Part shown: one piece after another, positions 1 to 10,073 of the stretch
Layout of the letters: each line of letters starts with the position of its first letter
How positions within the stretch are numbered: position 1 is the stretch's first letter
DNA from: Oscillatoria sp. PCC 10802
Lineage (GTDB): Bacteria > Cyanobacteriota > Cyanobacteriia > Cyanobacteriales > Oscillatoriaceae
Direction: 5' to 3'
Length of the DNA stretch: 10,073 bases
Assembly (NCBI RefSeq): GCF_000332335.1
Contig: NZ_KB235948.1
Location: 2,730,440 to 2,740,512 of the forward strand
Notes under the pieces: generated by a model
The model's database searches: none
Seen by the model: the letters and a program-made list of their open reading frames with translations, nothing else
What the model was told of the DNA's origin: nothing
Made by a program: the position numbers and the translations under genes

Positions 1-116
1 GGGCTTCAGCCCAAAAGTTCGTAGTTGGGCTTCAGCCCAAAAGTTCGTAGTTGGGCTTCAGCCCAAAAGTTCGTAGTTGGGCTTCAGCCCAAAGGTTCGT
101 AGTTGGGCTTCAGCCC
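1..116. repeat. Tandem array of a 26-bp unit (GGGCTTCAGCCCAAAAGTTCGTAGTT), 4 full copies plus a 12-bp partial. Copy 4 has one A>G change. The array is truncated by the window start.
   Basis: Direct reading: units at 1-26, 27-52, 53-78, 79-104 and partial 105-116. Each unit begins with a mini-palindrome GGGC-TTCA-GCCC. Confidence 0.9.
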
Positions 117-2463: not shown

Positions 2464-2493
2464 TGGTAGGAGGATTTTAACCGCAGATGCAGG

Positions 2494-2550
2494 CAGATAA
2501 ACGCAGATGAAGAGGATTATCTGCGTTCATCTCCGTTTATCTGCGGTTTG
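2494..2550 (+). terminator. Nested palindrome downstream of ndh. An 18-bp stem CAGATAAACGCAGATGAA / TTCATCTCCGTTTATCTG matches at 17 of 18 positions. A 14-nt loop is followed by GGTTTG. Candidate intrinsic terminator.
   Basis: Arms read directly (2494-2511 and 2526-2543). The U-tract is only 3 T. A second perfect 6-bp hairpin GCACAG-TTAT-CTGTGC lies at 2561-2576. Confidence 0.4.
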
Positions 2551-2935
2551 AAAAAGTCCCGCACAGTTATCTGTGCCACCATCGGGTGAGCCGGTTGAGG
2601 ATAGATGGGCGATTGTGCCAAGCTTGATAAAATTCCGGGTAGGGCATAGTTTGGGCGCAGTGCAAGATGAGTTTGTACCACTTCTCGAATCGCTCATATT
2701 TCATTATCTAACTTATCATTTATGCTGCTTTTCTGCGGGTATATTTATCCCGTTCTGACTCGATGACTCGCACTAACGTCTCCATAGCTATTTGATTGCC
2801 GGTGCCACAAACTCCAAGTGCTGCAGCGCCAGCCGCAGGGTATTTTTCTTCATATCCTTGATGCGATCTTTGTCCAGTTCGTTTAGCGCTCGCCGCGATT
2901 CGCAGCGCCAAAAGAAACAAAATACAAAAGAGGCG

Positions 2936-3106: not shown

Positions 3107-4018
3107 CTACCGGGGTATATAATTGACAATTATGTCAGCTTTTAGCCAGCCTCGTCCCAAGTAGTCTACGATTATGCCGCCTATTCTTCTGACTCCCTTT
3201 CCTTGCAAATGGGCGTACACGTCCACACAATTTGGTTGTCCGGCAACAATCTCAATCTTTTCAAAATAGGAATAGCCTCCATCAGAAATCATTAAGGGGG
3301 GTTGCCAATTCACAATCTCGCGGGCTTCTGGAACGCAAAACCTTTGAACGACTTGGCGATTGTCTGTATGATCTACACGCACGTCAAAGCGAAAGGTTCG
3401 CTGTTGCACTGGTGGTGGGGGAGGTGGGGGAAGTGGGGGAGCATCATGAAAACTTTTGAGGTTAGGGAACTCTTCAAAAATAACCTTTGTGGGCACTCCA
3501 TACCCACCTAAATTACTATAAATGTTGCGACTATCACTAATAATGCCGCACACCTTTCCGGTGTTTTCATTTAGCAAGGGTGAACCGCTGAATCCAGGAG
3601 CAGCTTGCCCCTCAGTGAATTTGATCAATTCTGGGTTTCTCCCGCAGACACCTTCACATTTATACGTTGCTGATTCCCCCTTGAAATGACTAATTTCAGT
3701 ATAGCCATAGGTGGAAAAGGAGTCACCGACTTGGAAAGACTCATCCAAAGACACGCAAGGTTGTCTGGGAATACTATTATTTAACCGGATAAGTGCTAAA
3801 TCAACTTTAGCAGTATCTTCCGCTCTTCCCACAACTGTGGCGGGGTATTCTTGATTTTGCCAGTAAACCGTGACCGACTGCTGATCCTTAACCACATGAG
3901 CGCAGGTGAGAATCAGCCCCTCAGCAGCCACAAAAAATCCTGTTCCGCTCTCTGTATTTGCACTTATCCGCACAGTGCATTGTTTCAACTGCTCGCACAG
4001 CTCGTTCAGATCCGTCAT
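3107..4018 (-). CDS. Cytoplasmic trypsin-like serine peptidase (S1/chymotrypsin fold, compact Trypsin_2-like), 303 aa. Carries a poly-proline linker (PPLPPPPPPPV) and an unassigned ~100-aa C-terminal domain.
   Basis: Catalytic triad in canonical order and context: His in GLILTCAHVV, Asp in VDLALIRL, Ser in GFSGSPLL. No signal peptide. ATG start with GAGG about 12 nt upstream. Lies 44 bp downstream of the co-oriented small ORF. Confidence 0.8.
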   Translation of the reverse strand: MTDLNELCEQLKQCTVRISANTESGTGFFVAAEGLILTCAHVVKDQQSVTVYWQNQEYPATVVGRAEDTAKVDLALIRLNNSIPRQPCVSLDESFQVGDSFSTYGYTEISHFKGESATYKCEGVCGRNPELIKFTEGQAAPGFSGSPLLNENTGKVCGIISDSRNIYSNLGGYGVPTKVIFEEFPNLKSFHDAPPLPPPPPPPVQQRTFRFDVRVDHTDNRQVVQRFCVPEAREIVNWQPPLMISDGGYSYFEKIEIVAGQPNCVDVYAHLQGKGVRRIGGIIVDYLGRGWLKADIIVNYIPR

Positions 4019-4061
4019 CCCCTTCTTGCCTCGCTAATAGCCAAAAACTACATGTTGACCT

Positions 4062-4412
4062 TCAGTTGCTTGAAGCATCGCGTGTTGGAATGTCTTCCTT
4101 TGCCCACTCCATAGTAATTTCTAGGTTTCCCTTGCTAGAGCCTTTTACAATCAGTGCTGTTAGCTGTCCCGACTCTAGTGCAACTTCTAACCCTAATTTT
4201 ACACTCGTTTTAGTAGGCTTTACCTGCTGCAAATGGTTGACTATCGCAGCGGCAATCCCCTCAATTGAATTAGTTAAATTATCCAAAGATAAGATTTGAG
4301 ATGAAGAGCTAATCTTCTGAGAGCCACCCAGCATCCTTGCTTCAATGTTTACCTCCTGGCCATTCGGAAGCTTAACTCGAACAATTTCTGTGCGTTCTGC
4401 GCCAGATTGCAT
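4062..4412 (-). CDS. Small soluble protein, 116 aa, co-transcribed immediately upstream of the trypsin-like peptidase. Possible trypsin-co-occurring (Trypco-like) partner, regulator or substrate.
   Basis: ATG start preceded by a strong SD (CTAAGGAGAAGAAATT-ATG). Same strand as the peptidase with a 44-bp gap. Beta-rich pattern SVKLGLEVALESGQLTALIVKGSSKGNLEITMEW. No TM or signal peptide. AT-richer than the flanking genes. Confidence 0.6.
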   Translation of the reverse strand: MQSGAERTEIVRVKLPNGQEVNIEARMLGGSQKISSSSQILSLDNLTNSIEGIAAAIVNHLQQVKPTKTSVKLGLEVALESGQLTALIVKGSSKGNLEITMEWAKEDIPTRDASSN

Positions 4413-5018
4413 AATTTCTTCTCCTTAGAGATTGAGGTATTGTTTTGAATCTGTCCGTGAGCCCCCCACCCAAACCCATCCAGCCGAGCTGGGGAACTCA
4501 TCAGCCTTTTTCCCACCACCCTCACCGCCATCCGGAAACTTTTTACATTTCTTCATCAACGAGCCTCCGAACCCCCCCAGCACCGGCACCCAACTCACTC
4601 CCCTCCCCCGCCCCCAGAATGCCGGCACGCCAGAGCCCCACCGGCTAAGTCGCTGGAGTCTTCAACCGGATGTCTTAAAATATCTGCCTTAGCCCAAATC
4701 GCGTAAACTCTACGCTGAAAGCATTTACGCTGCTAACGCCCGCAAAAGATTGCGTATTTTCCGGCAGAATACATAAGCAAACGCCCCCCACCGGCAGGCT
4801 CGCTCGGCGCACCGGCAGCCGGTGTGTTGCGCCAAGTTGCCGGTGGCTTCCCCAGCACCCAATATAGCGGCAAAGCCGGTGTTGCACAGAGCTGAAGAAC
4901 CCCGTGGGGTTAAATCCTGTTGCTGTAAACGCGACTCCCGACACTATCCCTCTTTATACAACAAGCAAATTAAAAGCGCAACCCCTTGCGATCCCCACCC
5001 CCACCAAACAGCTACAGC

Positions 5019-6383
5019 TTATTCCAGAGAGAGCTCGCAGCTCTCCTCACTAACCGGCACAGCCTCCGGAGCCAGCAAGTTAACTTTCACGTTTTGCCGG
5101 ATAGGAATTTCAATTGCAAACTCCGCTCCCCGCCCGGGCGCTGAAACACAAACAAGCCGCCCGCCGTGTTTTTTCACCACAATCTGGTAGCTAATGGACA
5201 GCCCCAAGCCGGTGCCGCTCCCCACCGGCTTAGTCGTAAAAAACGGGTCAAATATTCTATGAAGCACATCTTCACTCATGCCCGGCCCATTGTCAATAAT
5301 CCGGATTCTCACGCAGTCAAAGGAAGACACTTCAGTGCGAATCCGAATGCAGGGAAAAAACCCTGACTTGTCACGAGAGGAACCATCACCCCCCACTTGC
5401 GAATTCCCACACCCCATCCCTTCTTCAAGGGCATCAATCGCATTCGTAAGAATATGCATAAACACTTGGTTTAGCTCGCCGGCGTAGCAGGTAACTTCTG
5501 GAACATCCCCGTACTCTTTAACCACTTCGATATCAGCCAGACGCCCGTCTTTTTTGAACCGGTGCTGCAAAAATAGCAGCGTGCTGTCAATGCATTCGTG
5601 AATGTTCACCGGCTTGATATCCGATTCATTCAGCCGGGAAAAAGTCCGCAAACTCAACACCATATTGCGGATGCGATCGGCTCCCACTTTCATCGAATCC
5701 AGAATTTTTTGCACATCCTCAACCATAAATTCCAGGTCGATGCTCTCAGTAGCCGCTTTAATCTCCGGTGCCGGATTGGGGTAAGTTTTTTGGTAGAGGT
5801 CGAGCAGATTGAGCAATTCTTGAATATAGCTATTGATCGGGAACAGATTCCCGTAAATAAAGCTGATGGGGTTGTTAATTTCGTGGGCGACACCCGCCAC
5901 TATCTGCCCCAAGCTGGACATTTTAGCCGCCTGAATCACTTGCGCTTGGGTGGCGCGAAGTTCCGAGAGCGTTTGTTCCAGCGTTTTTGTCAGAGTGCGC
6001 ATTTTGACGTGCGCATTGATGCGAGCCAAAACCTCCTCTTGCTGGAATGGCTTGGTAATGTAATCCACTGCGCCCATAGAAAACCCCTTCACCTTATCCA
6101 CCGTCTCAGAAAGAGCCGTCATAAAAATCACGGGGATGTCTTTCGTTGCCTCATTTGCCTTCAGCCGCCGGCAAGTTTCAAACCCGTCGATTCCGGGCAT
6201 CATCACATCCAGCAAAATCAGAGCCGGCGGGTCGTATTGCACCTTGCGGATAGCACTTTCTCCATCTCGCGCTACCCGCACACCAAACCCAGCTTGATTC
6301 AAAACCGCAGAGAGCAAACTCAAATTGGCCGGGGTGTCATCGACGATTAAGATAGCAGCTATATCACCCTTTTTATCGTTCAT
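5019..6383 (-). CDS. Hybrid two-component protein: N-terminal receiver (REC) domain fused to a histidine kinase (HisKA + HATPase_c). 454 aa from the ATG at 6383, or 473 aa if the TTG at 6440 is used.
   Basis: REC acidic pocket (LIVDD ... LILLDVMMPGIDG ... K in DYITKPF). H-box AHEINNPISF. N/G boxes IIDNGPGM and GTGLGLSIS. The ORF-track start at 6440 is a TTG. An in-frame ATG (MNDKKGD...) at 6383 gives a canonical receiver N-terminus. Confidence 0.85.
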   Translation of the reverse strand: MNDKKGDIAAILIVDDTPANLSLLSAVLNQAGFGVRVARDGESAIRKVQYDPPALILLDVMMPGIDGFETCRRLKANEATKDIPVIFMTALSETVDKVKGFSMGAVDYITKPFQQEEVLARINAHVKMRTLTKTLEQTLSELRATQAQVIQAAKMSSLGQIVAGVAHEINNPISFIYGNLFPINSYIQELLNLLDLYQKTYPNPAPEIKAATESIDLEFMVEDVQKILDSMKVGADRIRNMVLSLRTFSRLNESDIKPVNIHECIDSTLLFLQHRFKKDGRLADIEVVKEYGDVPEVTCYAGELNQVFMHILTNAIDALEEGMGCGNSQVGGDGSSRDKSGFFPCIRIRTEVSSFDCVRIRIIDNGPGMSEDVLHRIFDPFFTTKPVGSGTGLGLSISYQIVVKKHGGRLVCVSAPGRGAEFAIEIPIRQNVKVNLLAPEAVPVSEESCELSLE

Positions 6384-6642
6384 AGTTATTTTTTTATCGC
6401 TGTTTTTTATTTGAGAAAACGGCTGAGCGAAAGACAACAAAGGAGGGGACGAAGTGAGCCGGCGGGTTGAGGGCTCGAAGTAAGTCTGCCTAGCAAACGC
6501 AGAACCTGCGACCTATTTTACCACCAGTCGTCCCAAGATTTGCCACTTGCTGCCGGTGAGCCCAACAATCTTTCCCAAAACTCCCACTGCAGCCATTTCC
6601 GCCCCCTGCCGGCGCTACATCGCTCCGTGCCGGTGCCGGTGC

Positions 6643-6660
6643 GGGTGTCTTCTGGGAACC
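6643..6660. repeat. Mini-repeat copy R2: GGGTGTCTTCTGGGAACC.
   Basis: 17/18 identity with 7467-7483. Shares TTCTGGGAACC with 699-709. Confidence 0.5.
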
Positions 6661-7004
6661 GAATTGTGTGCCGGTTTGACTGTTCATAGTTCATTCAACC
6701 CCCTCAATCCAGATTGCGGGCCCACTCCCCAATGCGAGCCTGAGCCATTTTAATTTATCCTAATGAATTTTTCACCTCTACCCCTTCAATCTTGATTAAG
6801 ATTTATCCGCAATCCCTGATATTATACCCTCACTTCTCACTTAAACCCGATCCCCCGGTACAATCCAGGAATTCTCCCCCGCTTCCCATCCGTTCTATCC
6901 GTTAAATCCCTGATATCCTGTCGTTGAACTGCCGCAATCTGAAACCAAAGCCCAAAGCCCCACGCCCAATGCCCGACCCTCAAGATATTACCGGCATTCA
7001 ACCT

Positions 7005-7020
7005 GATATAATATTATATC
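7005..7020. promoter_or_regulatory. Perfect 16-bp palindrome GATATAATATTATATC, 55-70 bp downstream of the nnr stop. It contains TGATATAAT, an extended -10 that reads identically on both strands.
   Basis: Reverse complement equals itself, checked base by base. Confidence 0.4.
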
Positions 7021-7074
7021 CCTCATTCCTAGCCTTTATATCGCCCCTTAGATAGAGGAACAAAATTGAACCTA

Positions 7075-8661
7075 TTACTTCGCGTAGTTGCGCAGCACCG
7101 GCACTAAATACTGCGCCAGCGTAAACGCATCGACCCCCAGCTGACTCCGCTCCTGCGCCGCCAGAATGCCGGCGCTCGCGTGCCACCACACCGCTAGTTT
7201 GCATGAGTCTTCAACCGGCTTTTCCGCAACAGCCGCCTGCGCCCACAAGCCCCCCATCAGCCCCGTAAGCACATCCCCGCTGCCGCCGCGAGCCAAAGCC
7301 GGCGTACTTTCCGGCTGCACCCACACCGTACCGTCCGGATGCGCCACTGCCGTTCGCGCCCCCTTCAGCAGCACGACAGCCCCAGTTTGCATCGCCGCCG
7401 CCCGCACAGCAGCAATTCTGCCTCCGTATCTCCCCTCTCCCTCAATGGGAGAGGGGTTGGGGGTGAGGGTGTCTTCTGGAAACAAACGCTTGAACTCACC
7501 GAGATGGGGCGTCAGCACTGCCGGCGCTCGCCGCTCAGTCAGTGTTGCAATCGCCCCCAGATGCGCCAGCACATTCAGCCCGTCCGCATCCAAAACCAGA
7601 GGGGGAGAGCTCTCCAGCACCGCCTCCACCACCGGCGCAGCCCCCACCGTCAGCCCCGGACCGCACGCGATCGCACTGTAAGAATTCAAATCGGCACCTG
7701 GCGGCAGACCTGCGATCGCCCCCGCCTCCGTTTCCGGACACCCGACAATCAGCGCCTCTGGCAGCTGCAAACTCAGCAGCGGCTTAACCGACTCCGGAAC
7801 CGCCACCGAGAGCATCCCCACCCCAGACGCCCGCGCCCCCAAACCCGCCAAAATTGCCGCGCCGGTGTACTTGCGCGAACCGCAAACCAGCAGCAAGTGC
7901 CCCATCTTGTACTTGTGCGACGCCGGCGGGCGGGGGATGGGGAGGTGCGACAGCGCGACTGCCGGTGTGATGCGCCGGATTGCCGGTGGCTCGCCGAGTA
8001 CCGCCCGGATATCCGCCAGCGGCAAATCAAAATCAACCAGCTCCGCCTCACCAATATACTCTAGCGCCCCATCTTGCAGGAACGCCAGCTTCCACAGCCC
8101 CAAGCAAAACGTCCGCGCCGCCCGAATCGCAGTGCCCAAAACCTCGCCGGTATCCGTGTGCAGCCCCGAAGGAATATCCACACTCAGCACCGGCACCCCC
8201 CAGCGATTCACCTCATCGATCGCCGCCGCAACCGCACCGTCGAGCGAACGCTCCAACCCAAAGCCAAACAGCCCGTCAACCAGCAAGTCACACCCTTGCA
8301 GCGGCTCAACTTCCTGATAGAACGGAATTCCCAGACTCGCCACATACCGGGCGTGCTGTCCCGTCAGTTCCTTAAGCTTAGAAAACGGCGAATACACCGC
8401 CACCTCAAAACCCCGCCAGTGCAGCTCCCTAGCCACAACCAAAGCGTCCCCCCCATTGTGCCCCGGACCAACCAGCACACCGGCACGCACCGGCTGCCGG
8501 TATAGCTCCTGAATCCGCTTCGCAACCAGTCCCGCCACCTTTTCCATCAGCGCCGGCACCGGCATTCCCGCCTCAAACACGCGCCCCTCAATCGCACGCA
8601 TTTGCTCAGCCGTCACAGCAAACTGGTGAATCTGCTCAACCCTGTCCTGAATTCGCCCCAC
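7075..8661 (-). CDS. nnr: Bifunctional NAD(P)H-hydrate repair enzyme Nnr, 528 aa, GTG start. N-terminal NAD(P)H-hydrate epimerase (YjeF_N) fused to C-terminal ADP-dependent (S)-NAD(P)H-hydrate dehydratase (YjeF_C, carbohydrate-kinase fold).
   Basis: N-terminal VTAEQMRAIEG ... LVGPGHNGGDALVVAREL. C-terminal GGSGDVLTGL. An upstream in-frame stop at 8686-8688 rules out a longer N-terminus. Confidence 0.9.
   Translation of the reverse strand: MGRIQDRVEQIHQFAVTAEQMRAIEGRVFEAGMPVPALMEKVAGLVAKRIQELYRQPVRAGVLVGPGHNGGDALVVARELHWRGFEVAVYSPFSKLKELTGQHARYVASLGIPFYQEVEPLQGCDLLVDGLFGFGLERSLDGAVAAAIDEVNRWGVPVLSVDIPSGLHTDTGEVLGTAIRAARTFCLGLWKLAFLQDGALEYIGEAELVDFDLPLADIRAVLGEPPAIRRITPAVALSHLPIPRPPASHKYKMGHLLLVCGSRKYTGAAILAGLGARASGVGMLSVAVPESVKPLLSLQLPEALIVGCPETEAGAIAGLPPGADLNSYSAIACGPGLTVGAAPVVEAVLESSPPLVLDADGLNVLAHLGAIATLTERRAPAVLTPHLGEFKRLFPEDTLTPNPSPIEGEGRYGGRIAAVRAAAMQTGAVVLLKGARTAVAHPDGTVWVQPESTPALARGGSGDVLTGLMGGLWAQAAVAEKPVEDSCKLAVWWHASAGILAAQERSQLGVDAFTLAQYLVPVLRNYAK
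7426..7484. repeat. Mini-repeat copy R3 inside the nnr coding sequence: TCCCCTCTCCC-TCAAT-GGGAGAGGGGA, then TTGGGGGTGAGGGTG, then TCTTCTGGAAAC. On the - strand it encodes the in-frame peptide FPEDTLTPNPSPIEGEGRYGG.
   Basis: The reverse complement matches R1 (CACCCCCAACCCCTC plus hairpin). It shares a 17-mer with R2. The translation was verified codon by codon. Confidence 0.6.
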
Positions 8662-9029: not shown

Positions 9030-9698
9030 CTAAAAATTCCCGTAATAAACCCGTGCGTTCTTCAAACCAAAATCCTGGAGATAGAAGTTCCAGCGCTCTG
9101 CCGTATCCCGGTCAGCAAATGGGCCCACCAGAACGTATGGCCCCTGCGGGCTGTCTTGCGGGCTGACCCCGAAATTCACCAGTCCCAGCAGGCGCACTTG
9201 CTCTGCAGTCGCCTGCAAGTCCCTCTCGCGAGCGGGGATAACCACAAAATAGCCGGTGCCATAACTGACGGGGGTCGGTGTGTCCGGTATGTTCGGTATG
9301 TTCGGGATGTCCGGCACCGGCGGTCTTGCCTGCCGGCTCTCGATTGAGGCAATCTCAGCCTTGATGTACTGCGCTTCCAGATCCCTTTCGAGCCGCTTAG
9401 CCCGATCTTTATCGTAAAAAACATTGGCTTGGACGACCACCCGCCCCTTGTACTCCACCAGCTGTGCCTGGGGCTCTATCCTGCGCACCTGTTCCAGCAG
9501 TAGCAGGCTGTTCCCATTGACATAAACCAAGTAGTACCTGTCCGACCTTTGGGCTAGTATTTGGGACTGCGCAGCCTCTGGGAGAGGGGTTTGTCCGAGA
9601 GGTTGAGCCCCGGCGGCGGTATTCCACGCCAGTAACAAACACCCCCCCAAAAGCAGCCGAGCGGGGGTGAGCACAGAGGGGACCGAGCTTTCAGGCAT
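9030..9698 (-). CDS. Probable secreted or lipoprotein with SPOR-like (peptidoglycan-binding) repeat architecture, ~222 aa from the ATG at 9698. Contains a tandem IPNIPNIPD segment.
   Basis: N-terminus MPESSVPSVLTPARLLLGGCLLLAWNTAAGAQP is signal-peptide-like, with a possible lipobox LGGC. Two Y-rich beta modules are present (YYLVYVNGNS...KRLERDLEAQ and YVLVGPFADRDTAERWNFYLQDFGLKNARVY, the latter resembling the SPOR consensus Y-V-VGPF). The 67 codons upstream in the ORF track (MDFF...) look non-coding. Confidence 0.55.
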   Translation of the reverse strand: MPESSVPSVLTPARLLLGGCLLLAWNTAAGAQPLGQTPLPEAAQSQILAQRSDRYYLVYVNGNSLLLLEQVRRIEPQAQLVEYKGRVVVQANVFYDKDRAKRLERDLEAQYIKAEIASIESRQARPPVPDIPNIPNIPDTPTPVSYGTGYFVVIPARERDLQATAEQVRLLGLVNFGVSPQDSPQGPYVLVGPFADRDTAERWNFYLQDFGLKNARVYYGNF

Positions 9699-9867
9699 AT
9701 CAGTCGCGGATTGACCAAAACGAGGGGACGCCTGTATATACTTATTTCCGGGGGGAGCGCCAGCAAAAGTGCTGAGCGTGCTGGCGCGGGCGTCGCGCCG
9801 GCAAAGCCGGCAACAGCCAAAAAATCGAGACAGCAATCCGGGAAATTCATTTGGTTGGCTGTGCTCA

Positions 9868-10073
9868 GGGGAGCATCCCGGTTGTGGGAAGAAGTCCATA
9901 TCAATGCGACAGTGATTTCAGCAGGGGGTAGGAGGAGAAGATTTTTGGCCAGCTGAATCCCGGCAACGGGATTGAAACACTATACCGAACGGGAGCATCC
10001 CCGTTGTGCAAAGAAGCCCAAATGAATGCGACAATGATTTCAGCAGGGGGTAGGAGCGGATGATTTTTGGCCA
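9868..10073. repeat. Two 84-bp direct repeats (9868-9951 and 9990-10073, ~88% identity, period 122 bp). They are separated by a 38-bp spacer holding a perfect 7-bp hairpin with a GNRA loop (AATCCCG-GCAA-CGGGATT, 9956-9973). The array runs to the window end.
   Basis: Aligned by eye: GGGAGCATCCC(C/G)GTTGTG..AAGAAG.CCA.AT.AATGCGACA.TGATTTCAGCAGGGGGTAGGAG.....GATTTTTGGCCA. Confidence 0.8.

Follow-up and report, generated by a model that had tools for sequence, protein, structure and literature searches.

The DNA analysed here (the window) is a stretch of 10,073 nucleotides from Oscillatoria sp. PCC 10802 (contig NZ_KB235948.1, positions 2,730,440 to 2,740,512), and the question it raises concerns a trypsin-like protease that ends, beyond a run of prolines, in about 100 residues matching no named family: what does a domain of this kind do on such a protease? 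The domain (residues 204–303) is tentatively read as the input module (ligand-binding, sensory or regulatory) of a minimal Pepco–protease suicide or defence cassette with two genes, a reading in which our confidence falls a little short of even. It was ranked first because of the positional equivalence of the domain to STAND sensors, because of a Rosetta-stone link between domain and protease and because of the published logic of Pepco modules. From these we infer that the domain senses, that it has a ligand and that binding activates the protease.

The protease, its partner gene and the sensor position

The features on which the argument depends are as follows, in window positions.

3107–4018, minus strand: open reading frame (ORF) of an S1 family peptidase, 303 amino acids, with its stop codon at 3107–3109
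3449–4018, minus strand: trypsin-like serine protease domain, residues 1–190 (Pfam match at 3542–3946)
3410–3439, minus strand: poly-proline linker PPLPPPPPPP, residues 194–203, read from the sequence
3110–3409, minus strand: C-terminal all-beta domain, residues 204–303, from the translation (VQQRTF...IPR), the AlphaFold2 model and the phmmer family
4062–4412, minus strand: Trypco1/Pepco gene, 116 amino acids, presumed substrate and effector (PF19493, NF041216)

The 303-amino-acid ORF matched exactly the sequence of WP_017716947.1, an 'S1 family peptidase' of Kamptonema formosum / Oscillatoria sp. PCC 10802, and the host is a filamentous cyanobacterium. The Pfam model PF13365 (Trypsin_2) matched residues 25–159 (E = 1.4e-19). 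The triad of the protease is intact, comprising H41 (3896–3898), D73 (3800–3802) and S144 (3587–3589), and these residues were invariant or nearly so in an alignment of 15 protease-domain fusions (A3). HtrA models matched the protease domain weakly and partially, TIGR02037 with 44 bits (cut-off 416) and DegS with 23 bits (cut-off 423), and PADLOC matches (LmuA, RT-Protease and Avs1b) were restricted to the same domain. As neither a signal peptide nor a membrane segment was found in WP_017716947.1, the protein is predicted to be cytoplasmic. A longer ORF with a signal peptide was ruled out, there being an in-frame TAG five codons 5' of the ATG, and the sole hydrophobic peak is a core strand of the protease.

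The gene immediately upstream of the protease gene, which a preliminary description of this DNA had not mentioned, defines the system. Its product matched PF19493 (E = 2.7e-14, 54 bits against a cut-off of 24.6) and NF041216, the CU044_2847 family (E = 3.2e-16), and the Trypco1–protease pair is also present in the orthologous loci L006 and L007. Kaur et al. 2020 (PMC7159879) defined Trypco1 and Trypco2 as proteins that co-occur with trypsin in the conflict systems of multicellular bacteria; they were renamed Pepco by Evans et al. 2025 (bioRxiv 10.1101/2025.11.14.688446), in whose work Pepco is a protease-activated pore toxin and SsPepco (117 amino acids) has a conserved isoleucine, I97, directly before a short charged C-terminal tail. 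In the window Pepco, Ile99 is followed by a tail of 17 residues, six of them charged, at a position that looks analogous to that of I97. By this analogy, the bond after Ile99, between NLEI and TMEWAKEDIPTRDASSN, is a candidate cleavage site.

The sensors in described Pepco modules are FGE/FGS domains, transmembrane STAND ATPases, Avs-type STAND NTPases and peptidoglycan-binding domains (PMC7159879; bioRxiv 10.1101/2025.11.14.688446). The closest non-orthologous relatives of the window trypsin domain are the N-terminal trypsin domains of STAND NTPases (~50% identity), and many trypsin homologues at ~41–53% identity continue C-terminally into AAA_22, NACHT, nSTAND1, TIR or GUN4. Two Trypco1-paired relatives were looked up: P0038 is followed by a NACHT protein of 842 amino acids; P0016, an AAA_22 fusion, is followed by a 998-amino-acid protein. 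No gene like these NACHT and AAA_22 partners was found in the window or in L006 and L007. Because the nearest trypsin relatives hold STAND NTPases at this place and the window, L006 and L007 hold none, the beta domain appears to stand where the sensor normally stands. The system is of a known kind, a Pepco–protease module, with a new and unnamed C-terminal domain and no NTPase. The preliminary description had proposed that the domain dictates substrate or partner specificity; a sensor or a module for partner specificity would indeed be expected at its position, and the function itself, whether sensing, targeting or oligomerisation, is what we infer.

In the proposed mechanism, the C-terminal domain of the cytoplasmic protein would engage a cue, and binding of the cue would make the tethered trypsin-like protease competent, either via clustering or via relief of inhibition. 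The protease would then cut the charged C-terminal tail off the barrel of the Pepco (Trypco1) encoded upstream, probably after Ile99, and the trimmed barrel would permeabilise the membrane.

Fold and family of the C-terminal domain

Modelled alone with AlphaFold2 from a 28-sequence family alignment (A1), the domain was predicted to consist of nine beta strands and no helix (mean pLDDT 96.6, pTM 0.83). The same strands recurred at pLDDT ~90 in a full-length model built on A3, in which residues 193–198 fell below pLDDT 50 and pTM was only 0.58; these values suggest that the protease and the C-terminal domain are two independent bodies with a flexible or extended tether between them. Both models bear out the earlier claim of a separately folding domain after the proline spacer, and the nine confidently placed strands argue that the region, of which residues 207–303 (RTFRFDV...NYIPR) had been quoted, is neither low-complexity nor disordered.

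No match to the C-terminal 97–100 residues was obtained from Pfam or NCBIfam even at E ≤ 1, and Pfam gave none for any of the 28 family members. PHROGs and a sequence-profile search of PDB were equally negative. Foldseek returned nothing at E ≤ 0.001 against PDB (best E = 0.51, TM 0.42) or against BFVD (best 8e-3), and thus no confident match to a common, well-characterised fold. A PDZ match was absent from Pfam at E ≤ 1 and PDZ domains were also missing among the fold neighbours. The earlier statements that residues 205–303 hold no recognisable motif, and that they form no PDZ, TPR, WD or peptidoglycan-binding domain, agree with these searches and with the helix-free, all-beta model.

The nearest fold neighbours, all of them weak, include the STIV turret jelly roll, H-type lectins, phage cement proteins, pyocin fibre knobs and the nucleophosmin core. 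One alternative to a sensor is a lectin- or lipid-binding-like module for targeting or anchoring, which would place the protease at the envelope or membrane near its substrates and would not sense a trigger. This was considered distinctly unlikely, as the lectin-like fold similarities are insignificant by Foldseek, neither the domain nor the family members had a sequence match to lectin or carbohydrate-binding module families, and the domain in the window protein would be cytoplasmic, away from envelope glycans.

An exhaustive phmmer/HMMER search with the domain, covering 1.84 billion (1.84e9) representative proteins, gave 35 matches, of which ~30 were credible relatives. Relatives down to E = 3e-16 were 35–41% identical and had a motif in common, which argues that the domain is more than chance. 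Across the relatives, identity to the window domain was 24–41%, with the exception of the domain of P0003 (95%). The family motif in A1 is F.F..VDHEE...Q.FC.P...NG.T......PNCV.V.A.V.G.GV..GGI.V...GRGWL..I.V. Six giant surface proteins (P0122, P0132, P0139, P0146, P0147 and P0148), which carry MBG_2, Big_9 or cadherin repeats and showed 5–8 weak partial phmmer stretches each, were rejected as spurious, since the hidden Markov model of A1 did not match them at E ≤ 10; membership of MBG_2, Big_9 or cadherin-like surface repeats in the family is therefore not supported.

The domain was found in the following architectures: (a), the commonest, signal peptide, trypsin-like protease and domain (~330–375 amino acids); (b), stand-alone domain proteins of 100–107 amino acids; (c), a signal peptide or transmembrane segment followed by the domain, with no enzyme; (d), EAD8, transmembrane segment, Pro-rich stretch and domain (P0003); and (e), the window type, cytoplasmic protease, poly-proline and domain. 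No fusion to a caspase, TIR or nuclease was seen among the relatives from the exhaustive search. The earlier idea of an adaptor domain shared across effector types fell with this result, the partners being only trypsin, EAD8 with a transmembrane segment, a signal peptide or transmembrane segment, or none. The Pfam models for EAD (EAD1–11 and bDLD) gave no match to the C-terminal domain either, and the domain itself does not appear to be an adaptor; in the single case that calls for one, P0003, it is fused to a recognised adaptor, EAD8.

The family is unnamed and, on the searches made, appears rare. A pattern scan of 185,579 GTDB species genomes found one locus with the domain (L005), a scan of the JGI metagenomes found two and the IMG/VR viral contigs held none; a scan of GTDB species genomes for close relatives returned nothing. 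A word-index protein search returned nothing with the domain as query and one protein with the A1 profile, and it missed collection homologues 95–99% identical to the 100-amino-acid query; nulls from this search and from the genome-contig scan, which did not return the source genome, are not evidence for domains this short. At L005:7983–9018 (Synechococcaceae cyanobacterium SM2_3_2), a stand-alone Cys-free domain of 105 amino acids is followed by a 197-amino-acid ORF with a weak Peptidase_C39_2 match (E = 0.0036), which may be a further, weak, peptidase link of the domain. Nearby are UmuD/UmuC-like genes and what may be a WYL-type regulator, the latter called by eye.

C228 and C264 covary in the 28 sequences, with both present in 22, neither in five and one alone in a single sequence. 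The Cys-free and single-Cys forms are signal-peptide-less, namely five stand-alone proteins (100–107 amino acids) and the 310-amino-acid P0138; both cysteines are kept in all 15 protease fusions. The family looks natively extracytoplasmic, because it occurs in signal-peptide, Tat-partnered and transmembrane contexts and because the Cys pair is lost only in the signal-peptide-less stand-alone forms (plus P0138), and the two cysteines probably form a disulphide. This extracytoplasmic character is in tension with the window protein, which keeps the Cys pair although it is predicted to be cytoplasmic. The window gene is probably a recombinant that brought an extracytoplasmic-type domain into a cytoplasmic protease.

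A Peptidase_C92 gene directly precedes the fusion gene of architecture (a) in all three of the loci looked up. The contexts in which a Peptidase_C92 (YiiX-like, PF05708) gene lies directly before an exported trypsin–domain fusion are L008, L012/L013 and L014–L016; the L014 gene has a Tat-type RRHFLR signal at its start and adjoins a VapBC pair. This two-peptidase operon of Peptidase_C92 and exported trypsin–domain fusion appears undescribed.

Locus L001 and evolution of the interval

The window and a metagenomic contig, L001, have flanks in common, NDH-2 being 96% identical in nucleotide sequence, a hybrid response-regulator/histidine kinase 88% and YjeF 92%. By blastn, window 2844–3431 matches L001 11084–10501 at 96.6%, a homology that extends from the side of NDH-2 across the domain, and no match follows until 4600. 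The end of homology at 3431 lies inside the poly-proline codons. Because homology stops at 3431 and resumes at 4600, the difference between the two loci appears to be a segment swap, one boundary of which falls in the coding poly-proline tract. The tract had earlier been called a spacer; it does divide the two domains, and as it is also the homology breakpoint it is more than a spacer. The segments concerned are as follows.

3432–4599, minus strand: window-type-specific segment with the 5' part of the linker, the protease domain, the Pepco gene and its upstream region (blastn against L001 and L002)
L001:7246–10822: counterpart region with four genes, for an LCAT-like alpha/beta-hydrolase, a 63-amino-acid ORF, an EAD8–trypsin and P0003; the 3.5 kb that replace the window segment include the EAD8–transmembrane part of P0003 (gene tables and Pfam matches)

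The L001 EAD8–trypsin has only a weak local BLASTP match, over 46 residues, to the window protease. P0003 consists of EAD8 (E = 1.5e-7), a hydrophobic helix (Kyte–Doolittle 2.51, residues 123–141), a Pro-rich stretch and the beta domain; the copy paired with it on the L001 protease is EAD8 and not the beta domain. EADs act by homotypic recruitment through paired copies (PMC7159879, PMC8195603). By analogy, the peptide bond between protease and domain in the window would correspond to the EAD8–EAD8 pairing in L001, a Rosetta-stone link. As the connection is covalent in the window and EAD8-paired in L001, gene organisation provides good evidence that the beta domain and the trypsin-like protease work together.

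The domain does not seem to be tied to Pepco, because the effector in L001 is an alpha/beta-hydrolase and because Pepco-free exported proteases also carry the domain. Hydrolases of the L001 type have been shown to be protease-activated zymogens (bioRxiv 10.1101/2025.11.14.688446). A Pepco-docking role is disfavoured, the domain persisting with the alpha/beta-hydrolase effector and where Pepco is absent. The composition of P0003 (EAD8, transmembrane segment and domain) raises the alternative that the domain is itself an effector or cargo, a toxic or signalling moiety freed when the protease cuts the linker; EAD8 mainly recruits effectors (PMC7159879), and small beta-rich proteins, Pepco and EACC1 among them, can form pores. 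However, homology of the domain to Pepco was ruled out (hhalign probability 0.15%), no similarity to any toxin family was found, a dedicated effector gene is already there (Pepco in the window, the alpha/beta-hydrolase in L001) and exported proteases of housekeeping appearance also carry the domain. An effector role was considered extremely unlikely.

In its layout, an outer domain joined through a single transmembrane helix to an inner adaptor, plus an adaptor–protease, L001 resembles a death receptor. In a doubtful but more ambitious extension of the sensor reading, the domain would serve a bacterial death-receptor-like pathway as its extracytoplasmic receptor head. The beta domain of the L001 form would then sit in the periplasm on a Pro-rich stalk and signal through the helix to cytoplasmic EAD8, which would recruit the EAD8–trypsin by homotypic contact, and this protease would activate the alpha/beta-hydrolase zymogen; the window would hold a single-chain cytoplasmic recombinant coupled to the Pepco pore. 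If true, this would give a multicellular cyanobacterium an NTPase-free route of outside-in sensing for abortive defence or programmed cell death.

The same contexts bear on another explanation, in which the beta domain is a scaffold that keeps protease protomers together through self-association, a habit of many small jelly-roll or lectin-like domains, activity being set by assembly and the trigger lying elsewhere. Many of the nearest, weak structural neighbours are obligate oligomers, self-association works on either side of a membrane and so fits the mixed cytoplasmic and exported contexts, and a scaffold fits conservation of the domain while the protease diversifies. Structural similarity is, however, too low to transfer quaternary structure; the stand-alone 100-amino-acid copies and the enzyme-free signal peptide–domain proteins are not obviously explained, and the EAD8 pair in L001 already supplies association. 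A scaffold was therefore considered unlikely.

Between the window and L006, nucleotide identity was 99.3% in the domain, 94.4% in the adjacent non-coding flank, 91.7% in the protease domain and 94.3% in Pepco. The protease domain differed by 6 synonymous and 36 non-synonymous changes (non-synonymous to synonymous rate ratio, dN/dS, 1.7) and Pepco by 4 and 16 (dN/dS 1.2), compared with dN/dS of 0.15–0.33 in the flanking NDH-2, histidine kinase and YjeF genes. These values indicate diversifying selection or relaxed constraint on the protease–toxin pair (window 3443–4412 against L006). Within the domain there were 0 synonymous and 2 non-synonymous changes against L006, and 1 and 6 against L001. 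The domain thus appears to be the constant element of the locus and the protease–effector pair the diversifying one.

This pattern bears on whether the domain is an evolutionary by-product, recombination in the repetitive CCN-rich linker having joined the 3' end of an EAD8–transmembrane–domain gene to a Pepco-associated protease and left a functionless passenger. The break in L001 homology inside the poly-proline linker, retention of a Cys pair otherwise typical of exported forms and the mostly non-synonymous substitutions within the domain against L001 are in keeping with such an origin. Nevertheless, the fusion is intact in at least three diverged lineages, the window, P0001 (91%) and P0002 (87%), and no segment of the locus is better conserved than the domain (compare the non-coding flank above), which points to constraint or recent gene conversion and not to decay. 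The constancy of the domain argues against junk left by recombination, and a passenger was considered highly unlikely.

The same constancy is also unusual for a sensor engaged in a race with phage proteins. It would fit a conserved ligand, self-association or recent gene conversion alike.

The interval between YjeF and NDH-2 appears to be a hotspot of gene-content change. Window 4632–7095, which holds the hybrid response-regulator/histidine-kinase gene (5019–6440) and its surroundings, is missing in L006 and L007, where Trypco1 lies almost directly after YjeF. Downstream of the protease gene, the 211 bp at window 2633–2843 are present in the window and L006 and missing from L001 and L002, in which the flanks abut; this stretch may represent an insertion or a small mobile element. 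Window 2479–2548, directly past the stop codon of NDH-2, contains an imperfect 30-nucleotide inverted repeat (83% complementary, 10-nucleotide loop) with repeated GCAGAT(A/G)AACGCAGAT-like units, possibly a terminator or REP-like element. A 26-bp tandem repeat, GGGCTTCAGCCCAAAAGTTCGTAGTT, is present in 4.5 copies (98% match) at the edge of the window (1–116), with copies also at the end of L006, and a 9-bp tandem repeat (4.4 copies, 9275–9314) in ORF 9030–9899 encodes a PDIPNIPNIPDTP stretch.

Comparison with known systems

Pepco–protease modules were only recently shown to be protease-licensed pore toxins, and the protease switch is known for a few STAND-type sensors only. The window is like the described Pepco (Trypco1/Trypco2)–protease modules in having the 116-amino-acid Trypco1/Pepco directly upstream of a triad-intact trypsin-like protease, in its filamentous cyanobacterial host and in the place of the C-terminal non-catalytic module of the protease, which is that described for sensors. 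It differs in having no NTPase, the sole extra module being a 100-residue beta domain of no named family. The locus is thus a very small version of such a system, with two genes, no NTPase and a candidate input domain of 100 residues, and would lend itself to easy genetic testing. If the domain were a scaffold or a by-product of recombination, the finding would reduce to a new Pfam-type domain entry and a segment swap with a boundary in a coding poly-proline tract.

The resemblance to EAD-coupled conflict systems lies in L001, where EAD8 is found both on the protein with the domain and at the start of the neighbouring protease, giving the paired-adaptor layout. Unlike those systems, the window protein has no EAD and a covalent link, and the EAD8 partner in L001 crosses the membrane once and carries a Pro-rich spacer and the domain in place of a STAND, vWA-MoxR or GAP1 core. 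The domain is joined to proteases in three ways: covalently in the window protein, through an EAD8 pair across a membrane, and within exported proteases. If the domain is a ligand-gated regulator, the EAD8–transmembrane form would point to envelope-level sensing that feeds cytoplasmic death effectors.

The window protein is also like HtrA, DegS and DegP in that a small non-catalytic domain lies C-terminal to a trypsin-like one, and its exported relatives (signal peptide, trypsin, domain) mimic the DegP/DegS layout. It differs from them in that the C-terminal domain is not PDZ, the model being nine-stranded and helix-free, and in HtrA-family scores far below the cut-offs (44 against 416 bits). 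Gating of the protease by a bound ligand, as with PDZ, is a reasonable working analogy; if the domain is a ligand-gated regulator of trypsin-like proteases, it would represent a new class of regulatory domain analogous to the PDZ domains of HtrA.
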